From IMG/VR virus record IMGVR_UViG_2671180254_000003: DNA of 5,862 nt; one strand, 5' to 3'. Source of the stretch: a virus. Taxonomy: Duplodnaviria; Heunggongvirae; Uroviricota; Caudoviricetes. The notes under the pieces are model-generated. The model worked only from the letters and a program-made list of their open reading frames with translations, made no database searches and was not told the origin of the DNA. How positions within the stretch are numbered: the stretch's first letter is position 1; every line of letters begins with the position of its first letter. Made by a program: the position numbers and the translations under genes. This document shows positions 1 to 5,862 of the stretch, piece by piece.

Positions 1-117
1 TAGCTCCTTCTGATGCCATTCTATTTCAGGAAGGAGTGTCCGTTAAACTCAGGCTACCTCAGGTTATTCGCTTCTGGGCATGGGCGGATCAACAAATGAT
101 AGACGGTAATGCAGATT

Positions 118-136
118 GTAACGCTCGCGGCGTTAC
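118..136. repeat. Palindrome GTAACGC-tcgcg-GCGTTAC inside the replication gene; candidate initiator-binding site (ori element)
   Basis: Perfect 7-bp inverted half-sites around a 5-nt spacer. The same half-site recurs at 327-345 and 361-367. Confidence 0.3.
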
Positions 137-326
137 AAAAAGTGCAATAGATCGCATCACTTTTATGTCTGGTTTTGCTGATGCGTTAATTCAGGTTGGA
201 TGGCTGGTCGAAAATGACGGAGGGCTTTCTCTACCTAACTTTGAACGTCATAACGGAAAAAGCTCTAAAAAAAACGGGCGGTTACAAACGAGCGAGTAAC
301 AAAAATACGCGAACTGAAACGAAAAG

Positions 327-345
327 GTAACGCTGCCAGCGTTAC
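327..345. repeat. Palindrome GTAACGCTG-c-CAGCGTTAC; candidate ori/iteron element within the replication gene
   Basis: Perfect 9-bp inverted repeat with 1-nt spacer. Followed by another GCGTTAC half-site (361-367), a (GAGGAA)x3 repeat (371-388) and two GATC sites (389-392, 401-404). Preceded by an A-rich stretch (300-325). Confidence 0.35.
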
Positions 346-744
346 ACAAACGGATCAAAAAGCGTTACCAGAGGAAGAGGAAGAGGAAGATCTAAATACT
401 GATCTCCCCCTCGCCAAAAACGAGCGTCTAAAAAATTCGAGCCGGAGGCTATTGAGCTGCCCGATTGGTTGCCGGAAACACTCTGGCATGAGTGGGTCCG
501 GTTCAGACAGGCATTGCGAAAACCGATTCGAACGGAGCAGGGCGCTAACGGGGCGATACGGGAACTGGAAAAATTCCGTCAGCAGGGTTTTACACCTGAG
601 CAGGTGATTCGACACAGCATCGCCAATGAATACCAGGGCCTGTTCGCGCCGAAAGGTGTTCGGCCTGAGACGTTGCTCCGACAGGTTAACACCGTCTCGT
701 TGCCGGACAGTGCGATCCCGCCAGGCTTCAGGGGGTAACGGACC

Positions 745-1491
745 ATGAAAAATATTGCGACAGGCGGCGTTCTGGAACGCATCCGCCGACTGACCCCGCC
801 ACATGTAACCGCCCCATTCAGAACGGTAGCGGAGTGGCGCGAGTGGCAACTTGCTGAAGGCCAGAAACGTAGCGAGGAGATCAACCGCCTGAATCGCCAG
901 TTGCGGGTGGAAAAAATTCTGAATCGCTCAGGCATCCAGCCGTTGCACCGTAAATGCTCGTTTGCGAATTACCAGGTGCAGAACGACGGCCAGCGATACG
1001 CGTTAAGCCAGGCGAAATCCATCGCCGATGAACTGATGACCGGGTGTACAAATTTTGCGTTCAGCGGAAAACCTGGTACCGGGAAGAATCACTTAGCGGC
1101 AGCTATCGGGAATCGCCTGCTGAAAGACGGTCAGACAGTGATTGTGGTTACCGTGGCTGATGTTATGAGCGCCCTGCACGCCAGCTATGACGACGGGCAG
1201 TCAGGCGAAAAATTTTTGCGGGAGCTGTGCGAAGTGGATCTGCTGGTTCTTGATGAAATTGGCATTCAGCGCGAGACGAAAAACGAGCAGGTGGTGCTGC
1301 ACCAGATTGTTGATCGCCGGACAGCGTCGATGCGCAGCGTGGGGATGCTGACAAACCTGAACTATGAGGTGATGAAAACATTGCTCGGCGAGCGGGTGAT
1401 GGATCGCATGGTCATGAACGGCGGGCGCTGGGTGAATTTTAACTGGGAGAGCTGGCGTCCGAATGTTAGCCATTCGAGGGTTGTTAAGTAG
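745..1491 (+). CDS. DnaC-like replicative helicase loader (prophage YdaV-like AAA+ ATPase)
   Basis: 248-aa ORF with Walker A motif GKPGTGKNH, Walker B-like LLVLDEIG and DnaC-like overall architecture. ATG 745 lies 6 nt after the upstream stop with a G-rich RBS (AGGGGG 730-735). Confidence 0.9.
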   Translation: MKNIATGGVLERIRRLTPPHVTAPFRTVAEWREWQLAEGQKRSEEINRLNRQLRVEKILNRSGIQPLHRKCSFANYQVQNDGQRYALSQAKSIADELMTGCTNFAFSGKPGTGKNHLAAAIGNRLLKDGQTVIVVTVADVMSALHASYDDGQSGEKFLRELCEVDLLVLDEIGIQRETKNEQVVLHQIVDRRTASMRSVGMLTNLNYEVMKTLLGERVMDRMVMNGGRWVNFNWESWRPNVSHSRVVK

Positions 1492-1505: not shown

Positions 1506-1928
1506 ATGGCGAAACCTTTTACTCCCGAACAGCGGGAAGAACTGAAGACGCGAATTGTGGAACTCGTGCATCAGGACGGTCGGGTCACGATTCGGCAGTT
1601 GTCAGATGAAACAGGTATCAGTCGTGCGTCTGTCGGTCGCTTATGCATAGAACTGGTCGCAAGTGGTGATGTATATAATTCTGGCTACGGCTTATTCCCG
1701 TCTGAACAGGCTCGCAAGGACTGGCAAAGCGCCCGCAAAAAACTCTCGAGAGTAAAGGTGAGGAAACCGGTTGTTGTTGATCCGGACCTTATCTGGTCAT
1801 TACCTGACGGAGAAATACGCCGCTACGACAGGCGCCTGAATATAATCTGTCGCGAGTGCCGGAAGAGCGAAGCTATGCAGCGTGTACTGGCTTTCTATCA
1901 GGGTAATTTTCAGGAGGCGATACTGTGA
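1506..1928 (+). CDS. Winged-helix/HTH DNA-binding protein (prophage, DUF977-like; family uncertain)
   Basis: 140-aa ORF with strong SD CAGGAGG (1495-1501) 4 nt before ATG 1506. HTH-like segment VTIRQLSDETGISRASVGRLCIELVASGDV. Stop TGA 1926-1928. Confidence 0.75.
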   Translation: MAKPFTPEQREELKTRIVELVHQDGRVTIRQLSDETGISRASVGRLCIELVASGDVYNSGYGLFPSEQARKDWQSARKKLSRVKVRKPVVVDPDLIWSLPDGEIRRYDRRLNIICRECRKSEAMQRVLAFYQGNFQEAIL

Positions 1929-1985: not shown

Positions 1986-2342
1986 ATGGAAATAAAACCA
2001 GAAGATGAGTTAAGCAATATCGTTTTATTTCCGGTAAAAGAGGATGACCCTCGTAATCAGGTTAATTTTCTTTATGAGCCATCGGAAAGACCATATTGCC
2101 ATCACGCCTCTGTACGGGTTGACGAAAAAGAGCGTCAGGTCCGCTGTAAAATCTGCGGTGCGGTTGTGGAGCCGTTTGACTGGATGCTCTCTGTGGCAAA
2201 AAGAGAAACCAGACTGGCAGATGATGTAAGGCTATTGCGCCAGGAGGAACAGGAAAGGCGGAGAAATATAGAAAAGCTGATACAGATTGAGCGTAACGCG
2301 AAAGCGCGGATACGCAGGGCGACAAAATCCAGAACTGAATAA
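1986..2342 (+). CDS. Zinc-ribbon protein with basic coiled-coil-like C-terminus (hypothetical phage protein)
   Basis: ATG 1986 preceded by AGGAG (1975-1979, 6-nt spacing). Contains CHH...x13...CKIC putative Zn-binding motif. An alternative in-frame ATG at 1929 (137-aa version) abuts the upstream TGA and has SD AGGAGG at 1912-1917 with a long 11-nt spacer. Confidence 0.6.
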   Translation: MEIKPEDELSNIVLFPVKEDDPRNQVNFLYEPSERPYCHHASVRVDEKERQVRCKICGAVVEPFDWMLSVAKRETRLADDVRLLRQEEQERRRNIEKLIQIERNAKARIRRATKSRTE

Positions 2343-2489
2343 TTAAATTTAGCACTGTTAAAAATTTAATCCTTAACCGGAGGGATTTCTGCACCCTCAA
2401 ATCATCAGGAGACCACCCGAAAGGGCGGGGAGCAGTCACACATCTGTTTCCGATAGCCCCGTTCTAATGCTACACTCTTTGATATTTTT

Positions 2490-3176
2490 ATGACCCCAAT
2501 AAACATATTTATGACAGTTGCTGATTTCAAACGGCCCAAATTGGAGCTCCCAAACGGGGCAAACAAACTACTACTGCACTCTTGCTGTGCTCCATGTTCC
2601 GGTGAGGTGATGGAGGCGCTTCAGGCCTCGGGAATCGACTACACCATCTTTTTCTACAACCCGAACATTCATCCTCAGAAAGAGTATTTAATTCGTAAGG
2701 ATGAGAATATTCGCTTTGCTGAACAACACGGCGTGCCGTTTATTGATGCTGATTACGACACAGACAACTGGTTTGAACGAGCCAAAGGAATGGAATGGGA
2801 GCCCGAACGAGGGATCCGTTGCACCATGTGTTTTGACATGCGTTTTGAGCGGACAGCGCTGTACGCCGCTGAAAATGGTTTCAGTGTGATCAGCAGTTCA
2901 CTGGGCATTTCACGCTGGAAAAATATGCAGCAGGTTAACGACTGTGGGCGGCGAGCCGTCGCGCATTATCCGGGCATGGTGTACTGGGATTATAACTGGC
3001 GCAAGCAGGGCGGCTCGTCCCGTATGATTGAAATCAGCAAGCGCGAAAAATTCTATCAGCAGGAATATTGTGGCTGTGTGTATTCTCTGCGCGATACCAA
3101 TCTACACCGCAAATCTCAGGGACGCCCTCTTATCAAAATTGGTCAACTCCACTACGGTAAAGAAGAGAAGGAGTGA
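2490..3176 (+). CDS. queH: QueH-like epoxyqueuosine reductase family protein (DUF208, Fe-S enzyme)
   Basis: 228-aa ORF with the DUF208/QueH hallmark motifs as recalled from memory: [45 protein letters not shown]. Start could be ATG 2490 or 2511; neither has a clear SD. Confidence 0.8.
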
Positions 3177-3197: not shown

Positions 3198-3227
3198 TTG
3201 ATTTCATATTGGCGAGGTAAGTAGAAT
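3198..3227 (+). promoter_or_regulatory. Putative sigma70 promoter for hok-type transcript copy 1 (-35 TTGATT, 18-nt spacer, -10 TAGAAT)
   Basis: TTGATT 3198-3203 and TAGAAT 3222-3227 place a transcription start near 3234, the start of the tac-like sequence CTGCGGGTGCTTGAGG. Confidence 0.35.
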
Positions 3228-3321
3228 GACTGCGGGTGCTTGAGGCTATCTGCTTCAGGCATGAACACCAAAAGGCAGATAGAGAAAAGCCCCAGTTAAC
3301 ATTACGCGTCCGGCAAGACGC
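3211..3321 (+). promoter_or_regulatory. hok-type mRNA 5' leader, copy 1 (tac-like element plus conserved stem-loop); downstream body lost in assembly gap
   Basis: About 90 nt closely similar to 5355..5460 (CTGCGGGTGCTTGAGGCT...AGAGAAAAGCCCCAGTTAACATTACGCGTCC.GCAAGACGC). Contains stem CTATCTGC/GCAGATAG (3246-3253 / 3275-3282). Runs directly into the N run. Confidence 0.6.
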
Positions 3322-3574
3322 NNNNNNNNNNNNNNNNNNNNNNNNNNNNNNNNNNNNNNNNNNNNNNNNNNNNNNNNNNNNNNNNNNNNNNNNNNNNNNN
3401 NNNNNNNNNNNNNNNNNNNNNNNNNNNNNNNNNNNNNNNNNNNNNNNNNNNNNNNNNNNNNNNNNNNNNNNNNNNNNNNNNNNNNNNNNNNNNNNNNNNN
3501 NNNNNNNNNNNNNNNNNNNNNNNNNNNNNNNNNNNNNNNNNNNNNNNNNNNNNNNNNNNNNNNNNNNNNNNNNN
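3322..3574. other. Assembly gap (253 N)
   Basis: Uninterrupted run of N. ORFs 3236..3577 and 3255..3701 in the track are artefacts of translating N. Confidence 0.99.
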
Positions 3575-3694
3575 TAATTTTTGTCTGGATAATCGGAAAA
3601 ATAATTGAGCCAGTTATTGAATTGTATAACGACGTGGTATGGGCGTCATTCAACACACTGCACAATAAAATTAATCCGTATAAGGAAAGCTGAT

Positions 3695-4060
3695 ATGGCA
3701 CTGACGAAAAAACAACGTGCAGAACTGCGCATGAAGTTCGGTGGTCGCTGCGCTTATTGCGGCTGCGAACTTGGCGAAAAGTGGCATGCAGACCATGTAA
3801 AACCGGTCATTCGTTTTGATGGAAATATGCTTCACCAGGAACGTGACGATATATCCAACATGGTACCAGCATGCCACCCATGCAATCTGCACAAGCATTG
3901 CAGTAGCCTGGAAGATTATCGACGAATTATCAGTGATGGTCGTCGTGAATTCCTTGCGTCCGGGAAAGGCAAAGCGCTGGTTCGTATGGGATTGGTTGAA
4001 ATGAAATCTGACCCGGTTGTGTTCTGGTTTGAAAAATATCAAGAAGGGGCTACGGCATGA
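3695..4060 (+). CDS. HNH endonuclease
   Basis: 121-aa ORF from ATG 3695 with SD AAGGA (3682-3686). HNH motifs CAYCGCEL, WHADHVKPV, VPACHPCNLHK. The track's longer version starts at TTG 3605 with no RBS. Confidence 0.85.
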   Translation: MALTKKQRAELRMKFGGRCAYCGCELGEKWHADHVKPVIRFDGNMLHQERDDISNMVPACHPCNLHKHCSSLEDYRRIISDGRREFLASGKGKALVRMGLVEMKSDPVVFWFEKYQEGATA

Positions 4061-4722
4061 CCACTATTACCAAAGAGCGACTGCAATGGCTGGCTAACAT
4101 TTCTGGCCGCGATGATATTGACGATATAGACGGCGGTGAAATTCGTGAACTGGCGCTTATCGCTCTGGCATCACTGGAAGCAGAGCCTGTAGCGGAATGC
4201 ATTGTTGAAGATGGGGGCATGTGTATTGACGGGTTCGGTGAGTATGTGGGTCACTCGCTGCCTGATGGAATGCATGAGCTTTATGCTGCCCCGCGAATGC
4301 GACAACCTGATGGATGGAAAGCCGTAGCTGTAGCGTGGAAGGTGACGTTTACTCAAGTTGACCAGGAATCTAATACGTTCACTGCTATATATTTTGACAA
4401 AGCGGAAGTTGAGTGTTGGGTACGACTGCATAAAGCATGTGATTTTCGGGCAGATATAACACCGCTTTACGCAGCGCCGGCAGTGCCGGTTGCAGTAAAC
4501 GACGACATGGCTTACGCATTCCATCACGCACTGTCAGATTCATCGCTTGGCTCTGATGAAATCGAAGAAATTAAAACCGGTTTGCGTGCTGCCTTTGCCA
4601 ACGTCACTATCCAACCAGAGCCGATAGTGCCGGATGAAATCGGGCCAAACGATAGTAATACGTTTGATTATGTTGATGGCTGGAACGCCTGCCGCGCTGC
4701 CATGCTTAAGGGAGATAAATAA
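4057..4722 (+). CDS. Hypothetical phage protein (221 aa) with two LYAAP motifs
   Basis: ATG 4057 overlaps the HNH stop (ATGA), indicating translational coupling. Acidic N-terminus; LYAAP at codons 75-79 and again about 60 residues later (nt 4279-4293 and 4465-4479), encoded with different codons. Confidence 0.8.
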   Translation: MTTITKERLQWLANISGRDDIDDIDGGEIRELALIALASLEAEPVAECIVEDGGMCIDGFGEYVGHSLPDGMHELYAAPRMRQPDGWKAVAVAWKVTFTQVDQESNTFTAIYFDKAEVECWVRLHKACDFRADITPLYAAPAVPVAVNDDMAYAFHHALSDSSLGSDEIEEIKTGLRAAFANVTIQPEPIVPDEIGPNDSNTFDYVDGWNACRAAMLKGDK

Positions 4723-5087
4723 TGATTAATCGAACCAAACTGGAGCACATTCTCGAATATGCCAGGCAGCAGAAATGTATTGGGCAACTTTGTAAAATTC
4801 CACCAGGAGATATGGTTGAAATCGTGGAAATGGCCATGCGTAAGGCTGGCAACTCTCCGGTAGCTCCGGCTGGCTGGATAAGCTGTAGTGATGCAGTTCC
4901 TGCTGAATATTGCGATGTGATTCTTCTCGATGATCTCGGGAATGTATTCCCCGGTTCCTGGGATAAGGTTTTTTGCCCCACTCGTGGCGGGAATAAGATG
5001 GCTTTTGTGGACAAAGACGGCGTTGAAGTAGAGAGCTCAACTCACTGGATGCCGCTACCGGAACCACCGCAGGAGGTGAATCAATGA
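4722..5087 (+). CDS. DUF551-family prophage protein
   Basis: 121-aa ORF; start overlaps the upstream stop (TAATG) with SD GGGAG upstream. C-terminal WISCSDAVPAEYCDV...STHWMPLPEPP matches the DUF551 pattern. Confidence 0.85.
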   Translation: MINRTKLEHILEYARQQKCIGQLCKIPPGDMVEIVEMAMRKAGNSPVAPAGWISCSDAVPAEYCDVILLDDLGNVFPGSWDKVFCPTRGGNKMAFVDKDGVEVESSTHWMPLPEPPQEVNQ

Positions 5088-5354: not shown

Positions 5355-5484
5355 TGTCGGTAAGATTGCTGCGGGTGCTTGAGGCTGTCTGCCTCGGGTA
5401 TGTCACTGTAAGGCAGACAGAGAAAAGCCCCAGTTAACATTACGCGTCCTGCAAGACGCTTAACATTAATCTGAGGCCCAATCT
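5355..5484 (+). promoter_or_regulatory. hok-type mRNA 5' leader, copy 2 (putative -10 TAAGAT at 5361-5366, tac-like element 5369-5386, stem-loop 5385-5420, mok upstream region)
   Basis: tac-like CTGCGGGTGCTTGAGG is complementary to the 3' fbi-like sequence at 5749-5764. Stem CTGTCTGCC/GGCAGACAG (5385-5393 / 5412-5420). Leads into the mok/hok reading frame. Confidence 0.7.
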
Positions 5485-5697
5485 ATGTCTCACAAATGTA
5501 GGTTAGCCTCTTACGTGCCGAAAGGCAAGGAGAAGCAGGCTATGAAGCAGCAAAAGGCGATGTTAATCGCCCTGATCGTCATCTGTTTAACCGTCATTGT
5601 GACGGCACTGGTAACGAGGAAAGACCTCTGCGAGGTACGAATCCGAATCGGCCAGACGGAGGTCGCTGTTTTCGTAGACTACGAATCTAGAGAGTAA
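5485..5697 (+). CDS. mok: Mok-like regulatory reading frame (70 aa), in frame with and containing hok
   Basis: ATG 5485 opens the only frame open across the hok start. Length matches chromosomal Mok-type frames (recalled from MokC, which is an N-terminally extended HokC). Whether it is translated is inferred. Confidence 0.5.
   Translation: MSHKCRLASYVPKGKEKQAMKQQKAMLIALIVICLTVIVTALVTRKDLCEVRIRIGQTEVAVFVDYESRE
5542..5697 (+). CDS. hok: Hok/Gef-family type I toxin (HokD/RelF-like small membrane protein, 51 aa)
   Basis: MKQQKAMLIALIVICLTVIVTALVTRKDLCEVRIRIGQTEVAVFVDYESRE shows the Hok family signature (TM helix, LTRK.LCE.R...EVA.F..YES). SD AAGGAG sits 8 nt upstream of ATG 5542. Confidence 0.9.
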   Translation: MKQQKAMLIALIVICLTVIVTALVTRKDLCEVRIRIGQTEVAVFVDYESRE

Positions 5698-5704
5698 GAG
5701 TGAC

Positions 5705-5728
5705 CAGGCGGGAGAGTAATCTCCCGCC
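5705..5728 (+). other. Stable hairpin just after the hok stop (GGCGGGAGA-GTAA-TCTCCCGCC)
   Basis: Perfect 9-bp GC-rich stem with GNRA-type tetraloop; no immediate U-run. Probably a 3' UTR structural element of the hok mRNA. Confidence 0.5.
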
Positions 5729-5743
5729 ACCTTTGATGTGTCA

Positions 5744-5765
5744 GGCATCCTCAACGCACCCGCAC
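5744..5765 (+). promoter_or_regulatory. fbi-like (fold-back inhibition) element complementary to the 5' tac-like element
   Basis: CCTCAACGCACCCGCA (5749-5764) pairs with TGCGGGTGC-TTGAGG (5370-5384): 9 bp plus 6 bp around a single bulge. This is the 5'-3' pairing architecture of hok mRNAs. Confidence 0.6.
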
Positions 5766-5770
5766 TTAAC

Positions 5771-5789
5771 CCGTTTCGGCGGTTTTTTT
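5771..5789 (+). terminator. Possible 3' end of hok transcript (short GC stem plus T7 run)
   Basis: CCG-tttc-GGCGG followed by TTTTTTT (5783-5789). Stem is weak; the IS1 end abuts immediately. Confidence 0.3.
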
Positions 5790-5862
5790 GGTAATGACTC
5801 CAACTTATTGATAGTGTTTTATGTTCAGATAATGCCCGATGACTTTGTCATGCAGCTCCACC
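5790..5862 (-). mobile_element. IS1 insertion sequence, terminal 73 nt including inverted repeat; element continues beyond window end
   Basis: GGTAATGACTCCAACTTATTGATAGTGTTTTATGTTCAGATAATGCCCGATGACTTTGTCATGCAGCTCCACC matches the IS1 terminus as recalled. The minus strand encodes the InsB C-terminus. Confidence 0.9.
5805..5862 (-). CDS. insB: IS1 transposase InsB, 3' end (partial, continues beyond window)
   Basis: Minus-strand translation gives ...VELHDKVIGHYLNIKHYQ followed by stop (TAA, complement of 5805-5807). Confidence 0.8.
   Translation of the reverse strand, partial: VELHDKVIGHYLNIKHYQ

Follow-up and report, generated by a model that had tools for sequence, protein, structure and literature searches.

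The window, that is, the whole stretch of 5,862 nucleotides analysed here, is best read as one entire scaffold of two contigs, bounded by insertion sequences (IS), from a Shigella-type short-read draft genome, in which the join between the contigs is most likely a scaffolding error; we put the probability of this reading at roughly 70%. It contains a single run of N, which is an ordinary draft-assembly gap and not a biological feature, the two sides of the run having been assembled separately, the scaffold ending in IS copies and the join having no resolved counterpart. The IS ends on both sides (61 nt on the left, 72 nt of IS1 on the right) show the window to be a complete scaffold, with collapsed IS repeats at its two boundaries. 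Directly observed are the identity of each flank to loci in resolved genomes, the gene content, the mismatch between the number of N and the sequence that would have to be accommodated, and the absence of the join from closed genomes. The left contig (contig A, 1-3321) stops inside a hok/sok locus (hok copy 1, hok1), and the right contig (contig B, 3575-5862) contains a complete one (hok copy 2, hok2). The features of the scaffold are listed in Table 1.

Table 1. Features of the 5,862-nt scaffold, with the basis of each assignment
Feature	Position	Strand	Basis or remark
Terminal 61 nt of IS3-family element (385-aa transposase type)	1..61	.	scaffold left end
Replication-initiator-like pseudogene	62-738		5′ end truncated by IS
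ydaV-like ATPase	745-1491		
DUF977	1506-1928		
118-aa zinc-ribbon-like protein	1986-2342		
Repeat R: 3′ part of 118-aa gene plus terminator hairpin	2002..2428	+	repeat comparison
queH (epoxyqueuosine reductase)	2511..3176	+	Pfam PF02677, 220.8 bits; called QueH by RefSeq in L002
Promoter-like site for hok copy 1, TTGATT-18 nt-TAGAAT	3198..3227	+	consensus scan; putative function
5′ 88 nt of hok copy-1 mRNA (tac element, first hairpins)	3234..3321	+	Rfam RF01794; identity to L012
Assembly (scaffold) gap	3322..3574	.	253 N; length unreliable
DUF4014 gene, 3′ 119 nt including stop codon	3575..3693	+	first 100 nt in gap or missing
HNH endonuclease	3695-4060	+	second remnant; block 3695..5087 with Pfam PF01844 and PF04448 matches
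221-aa hypothetical protein	4057-4722	+	second prophage remnant
DUF551 protein	4722-5087	+	second remnant; block 3695..5087 with Pfam PF01844 and PF04448 matches
Complete hok/sok copy 2: leader, mok, hok, fbi, terminator	5373..5789	+	Rfam RF01794, Pfam PF01848
tac element of copy 2, GGGTGCTTGAGG	5373	+	visible in sequence
mok copy 2 (70 aa)	5485-5697	+	overlaps hok
hok copy 2 (51 aa)	5542-5697	+	PF01848, 76 bits
fbi of copy 2, CCTCAACGCACCC	5749-5761	+	visible in sequence
First 72 nt of IS1	5791..5862	.	scaffold right end

The two contigs in resolved genomes

The left flank is identical at 3321 of 3321 positions to the closed genome L012 (GCA_038367155.1), and its exact pattern has matches in only two closed genomes of the genome_contigs collection. 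The right flank is identical at 2288 of 2288 positions to L014 (3881-6168), L019, L022, L161-L166, L168 and L169. In every closed genome examined these flanks belong to two different prophage remnants, a separation judged from their different chromosomal neighbours, as each locus was read in other closed assemblies than its counterpart. Locus 1 has the order IS-A-hok1-Rem-DUF1367′-IS-int′-modC; in L010, L012 and L013 the hok1 leader is followed by the remainder of hok1, Rem, a truncated DUF1367, an IS, an int′ fragment and modC. Locus 2 has the order ttcA-IS-IS1-hyp107-DUF4014-HNH-...-hok2-IS1. Reading 5′ from the right flank, one meets the first 100 nt of DUF4014, hyp107 (a copy of the 118-aa gene truncated by IS1), IS1 and an IS; beyond these lies ttcA in some genomes and the locus's own ydaV/DUF977 in others. 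In none of these contexts (10 distinct ones, from 37 long contigs) does queH occur within 10 kb.

The join of the scaffold is absent from all collections searched. In the closed genomes examined, queH and hok1 are absent from the 9.5 kb upstream of the right flank, and DUF4014 and HNH from the 3.8 kb downstream of hok1. The exact right-flank start occurs in 19 loci; all of them have the rest of the 5′ part of DUF4014 directly upstream (interrupted by IS1 in L156), and none has a hok there. None of 5,426 complete E. coli genomes carries both flanks colinearly (best coverage 48%), and a gap-spanning pattern composed of the flanks and 238 to 268 N found no match in genome_contigs. In E. coli, the same prophage position is occupied by one of two cassettes, queH-hok or DUF4014-HNH-221aa-DUF551-hok, as a comparison of L002 with L003 illustrates.

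The 61 nt at the left end of contig A also flank IS copies in L012 (approximately 7130-7190) and L014 (approximately 2380-2440), and in L012 the counterpart of the window start is immediately preceded by the IS. The replication pseudogene differs from the intact 262-aa gene of L005 by two additional A residues in a poly-A run (267-268) and by a 10-nt deletion at 405, and a GAAGAG repeat at 366-390 differs among strains. The tRNA-modification gene queH is lambdoid prophage cargo, located directly upstream of hok copy 1.

Contig B starts at nucleotide 101 of the DUF4014 gene, window position 3575 corresponding to position 2501 of L003 (CDS 2401-2619) and 3881 of L014; the intact L014 protein matches Pfam PF13198 with 90 bits. 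The block comprising the HNH, 221-aa and DUF551 genes is 100% identical to at least 11 closed-genome loci. At the right end, the InsA and InsB genes of IS1 follow in L014 at 6111-6808. In another strain (L156, IMGVR_UViG_2874915312_000003) an IS1 is inserted about 20 nt into DUF4014, about 80 nt upstream of the right-flank start, showing that IS1 also targets this small gene in the lineage.

The length of the gap

The first-pass annotation placed the gap exactly where the body of a hok paralog would lie. The N run does start directly after the conserved leader of hok copy 1, as was stated there, with position 3322 following a segment that matches positions 1-58 of the RF01794 model. The run is not a hok-sized hole, being shorter than what follows position 3321 in the closed-genome counterpart, where fbi is complete after 307 nt and the terminator after 358 nt, and the sequence beyond the run lies inside DUF4014. 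An intact DUF4014 gene would require about 106 nt more, which are absent from the right flank, bringing the minimum for a simple contiguous join to 413-464 nt, compared with 253 N. Since the remainder of hok1 and the 5′ part of DUF4014 together need at least 413 nt, the N count is no reliable measure of the missing sequence. The gap length is an assembly artefact, and the join of A to B is probably one as well; an arbitrary size estimate, which the first-pass annotation had named as an argument against its own reading, is effectively what is seen. The remainder of the bare hok ORF (238 nt) would fit into 253 N only without fbi, without the terminator and with a truncated DUF4014.

Several ways of arriving at a true 253-nt interval were considered and rejected. 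A bridge made of part of the hok1 remainder and the DUF4014 5′ part (147 + 106 nt) is without supporting microhomology, the only candidate being the 8-mer CCGAAAGG, which is at the wrong distance. Another IS copy in the gap, suggested by the first-pass annotation, is contradicted on three counts: IS1 (768 bp) and the other IS (about 1.26 kb) both exceed 253 nt, IS terminal sequence is absent at the gap edge of either flank, and no resolved genome has an IS copy between the leader and the hok body. Nor does a repeat or mosaic boundary at 3575 explain the start of contig B, for the DUF4014 alleles are alike along their whole length and show no sharp edge there. The other contig end, at 3321, falls 9 nt into a 28-nt run common to hok1 and hok2 and likewise shows no obvious repeat boundary.

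The two hok/sok loci

The leader of hok1 (3234-3321) aligns with that of copy 2 (5373-5458), the conserved block being approximately 90% identical. It matches the Rfam RF01794 model (sok / hok leader) over positions 1-58 of 157 with 53.9 bits (E=3e-11); this is below the gathering score of 59 solely because the sequence stops at 3321. The counterpart in L012, to which the leader is 100% identical (4724-4811), gives a full-length match of 117 bits. In closed genomes the conservation between hok1 and hok2 runs on through the whole hok body at 90%, and the apparent end of the leader at 3321 is simply where the contig stops. On the minus strand, 3285-3321 corresponds to the 3′ end of sok, the antisense gene; the sokW annotation of phage 933W maps to the equivalent of 3285-3355 in the window, so that the sok gene straddles the gap edge. 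Upstream, the -10 hexamer of the promoter-like site ends 7 nt ahead of the Rfam match and of the predicted 5′ end of the mRNA; for hok copy 2, this simple scan gave no such site.

A Hok/Gef ORF (Pfam PF01848) of copy 1 is absent from the window, its expected position being the N run, and so are its 3′ fbi element and terminator, as the right flank starts within DUF4014. In L012, where the left flank is identical throughout, the corresponding region holds a 70-aa Mok/Hok ORF (4837-5049; PF01848, 79.9 bits) and encodes Mok (70 aa) and Hok (51 aa). This Hok1 differs from Hok2 at two residues (T36I and K51E) and is identical to HokW of phage 933W/Sp5 at 50 of 51. All of the approximately 130 public loci with an identical 64-nt leader end proceed into the hok body (TTAACATTAATCTGAGGC...), and none of them has the right flank within 900 nt of that point. 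Among the IMG/VR loci with the hok1 leader, 14 of approximately 130 (about 11%) end or are cut no more than 400 nt past the leader, inside the hok locus.

The claim that the gap is a collapsed repeat hiding a second hok gene is thus upheld insofar as a hok locus has been cut, its leader running into mok/hok in some 130 loci including L012. In view of the closed genomes whose flanks are identical, it is almost certain that the source genome carries this second hok, and hok1 would be intact in the source strain. The supposedly hidden toxin gene is, at the same time, an already known one, annotated as Hok/Gef or 'HokD' in closed genomes.

Copy 2 has both a Hok/Gef ORF with an overlapping mok frame and the leader/sok RNA structure, the RF01794 match at 5373-5547 covering the full model (1-157) with 118.1 bits against the gathering score of 59; it is accordingly a predicted hok/sok type I toxin-antitoxin locus. 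Position 5458 is the counterpart of 3321; beyond it the hok stop codon (5697) is reached after 239 nt, the last nucleotide of fbi (5761) after 303 nt and that of the terminator T-run (5789) after 331 nt, in agreement with the approximately 330 nt given in the first-pass annotation. Hok2 is identical to HokW at 48 of 51 residues. An IS1 is inserted directly 3′ of the hok2 terminator.

About 20 nt around the mok start codon (the Sok target; window 5477-5497) occur in at least five variants after the same 64-nt leader end among the approximately 130 public loci, and conservation resumes 3′ of this segment. From the alignments it looks like a specificity-determining hypervariable patch, which would limit Sok cross-talk between hok paralogs.

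[quoted passage not shown] 2021, PMC8621323). Toxicity of Hok and its neutralisation by Sok RNA are experimental only for this homologue, and HokW is 44% identical to the Hok protein of R1 (PMC8621323). The loci described here resemble hokW-sokW of 933W in the hok1 leader (93.5% identical to that of 933W), in the overlap of mok with hok, in a sok antisense gene lying across the mok start, and in their location in the early-right region of a lambdoid prophage. They differ in the upstream neighbour, which is queH for copy 1 and DUF551 for copy 2 and not the genes of 933W, and in that the approximately 20 nt of the Sok target differ between the two copies.

The classical relatives, hok/sok (parB) of plasmid R1 and the E. 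coli chromosomal hok loci hokA-E, are said to have been described by Pedersen and Gerdes in 1999. Copy 2 shares with these the Hok/Gef toxin (PF01848), the RF01794 architecture, the 5′ tac and the 3′ fbi; unlike the plasmid-borne R1 system, the present loci are prophage-borne. Several K-12 hok loci have an IS element beside them, and the IS1 after the hok2 terminator is a comparable arrangement.

Origin of the join

In the reading we favour, the source would be an IS-rich Escherichia/Shigella genome of the Shigella type, known from a short-read draft. Contig A would derive from one lambdoid prophage remnant carrying an IS, the replication pseudogene, ydaV, DUF977, the 118-aa gene, queH and hok1, and stops 88 nt into the hokW-like locus; contig B would derive from a second remnant with DUF4014, HNH, the 221-aa gene, DUF551, hok2 and IS1. 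The rest of hok1, with the sok promoter and the 5′ half of sok, mok (70 aa), hok (51 aa), fbi and the terminator, is almost certainly present in the source genome, but the N run is not a hole of measured size that contains it. What led to the join is likely to be the repeats common to both remnants, namely repeat R, the hok loci and the IS copies.

Repeat R (427 bp) is 99.06% identical to positions 3348-3774 of L014, just upstream of DUF4014. The two hok copies are 90% identical and have exact common runs of 82, 40, 32, 21 and 19 nt; exact repeats of up to 82 nt are enough to break short-read assemblies. Repeat-induced gaps and mis-joins are known from such assemblies of IS-rich Shigella genomes. 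With its ends in IS copies, its break in a multi-copy hok and the inconsistent joins of related drafts, the window does not differ from these and is a routine example.

The related drafts are three other short-read assemblies of near-identical strains, which join locus 1 and locus 2 in three mutually incompatible ways. L157 passes from repeat R directly to DUF4014 without queH and without hok1, and mismatches the window at two positions overall. In L149 the 118-aa gene extends to position 2315 and is followed by IS1, by repeat R once more and then by DUF4014; both drafts thus pass from locus 1 to locus 2 via repeat R. The third is a single 6,870-nt contig (L057 and L152; IMGVR_UViG_2681813268_000003) with hok1, Rem and 217 nt of DUF1367, followed by a jump into hyp107. 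The junction (positions 4178-4185) lies at a 10-13-nt microhomology, ATCACGCCTC(TGT), and includes 6 unread bases; it has the look of two ends merged on a spurious overlap. Three incompatible joins argue for mis-scaffolding and not for one real alternative structure. In L171, from the same batch as L057/L152, there are single-N joins at the same spot as the junction of that contig (window 2097/2115).

Three observations speak against a mis-join. Neither contig end coincides with an obvious repeat boundary, as described above. The 6,870-nt contig also has locus 2 following locus 1, both oriented as in the window, and this shared order could reflect real proximity in some strains. Furthermore, a positive estimate of 253 is not expected from a link through repeat R alone, which as the sole cause of that value was rejected on arithmetic giving about -787. 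The shared order would be accounted for if the join were real and only its size wrong, an IS-mediated rearrangement having produced A-hok1-Rem-DUF1367′-IS-IS1-hyp107-DUF4014-B and the scaffolder having skipped several kb of collapsed repeats. Downstream of DUF1367′ in L012 and upstream of IS1-hyp107 in L014 there is the same 385-aa IS, its relative orientation being the same as well, and recombination between these copies could juxtapose the loci; the gap would then hide hok1, IS copies and more, some 3.7 kb or above, and the suggestion of another IS copy would hold after all. We consider this unlikely, as the adjacency occurs in 0 of 37 or 46 long contigs (closed or long assemblies), the junction of the other scaffold lies at the microhomology, 100 nt before the IS boundary, and an estimate of 253 nt for a distance of more than 3.5 kb is implausible.

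Still less likely is a genuine compact recombinant, in which one prophage would have hok1, complete or truncated, immediately 5′ of DUF4014 and the gap would be about 250-470 nt of real sequence. Mosaics of this kind are conceivable, given that the cassettes alternate at the same lambdoid position, between the 118-aa gene and DUF1367, and paired-end gap estimates are biased low, so that 253 could stand for about 460. Such a structure was not seen, however, in the 5,426 complete E. coli genomes, the approximately 130 leader loci, the 19 right-flank loci or the closed Shigella-type genomes; each flank is 100% identical to a separate closed-genome locus, and the illegitimate junction that it needs has no homology at the required place. 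Least probable of all, and in our view very improbable, is that exactly 253 real bases of a chimeric or real contig were masked on purpose, for example in a contaminant or vector screen or by a database. It is true that conventional placeholders have lengths such as 10, 50 or 100 and not 253, and that the description of the genome_contigs collection mentions a few stretches masked as N; but the window is absent from that collection, a contiguous 253-nt bridge between the flanks occurs nowhere in the collections searched, and gap estimates of arbitrary length are normal scaffolder output.

Should the contigs nevertheless be truly adjacent, which we regard as improbable, the scaffold would represent a recombinant remnant with two near-identical hokW-type loci at a distance of only about 2.1 kb, one of which would be truncated or fused to DUF4014. 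Since the Sok-target segments of the two paralogs differ, such a remnant would lend itself naturally to a test of Sok cross-talk between them. With the join taken as a scaffolding error, the gap is a matter of caution only and should not be treated as a measured 253-nt hole, and the scaffold is no evidence that queH-hok and DUF4014-HNH share one prophage. Hok copy 1 should be annotated as 'partial, interrupted by assembly gap', and neither as a pseudogene nor as a lost gene. The 'hidden' toxin gene is real in the lineage and one residue away from HokW, so that resolving the gap would add nothing new to its biology.
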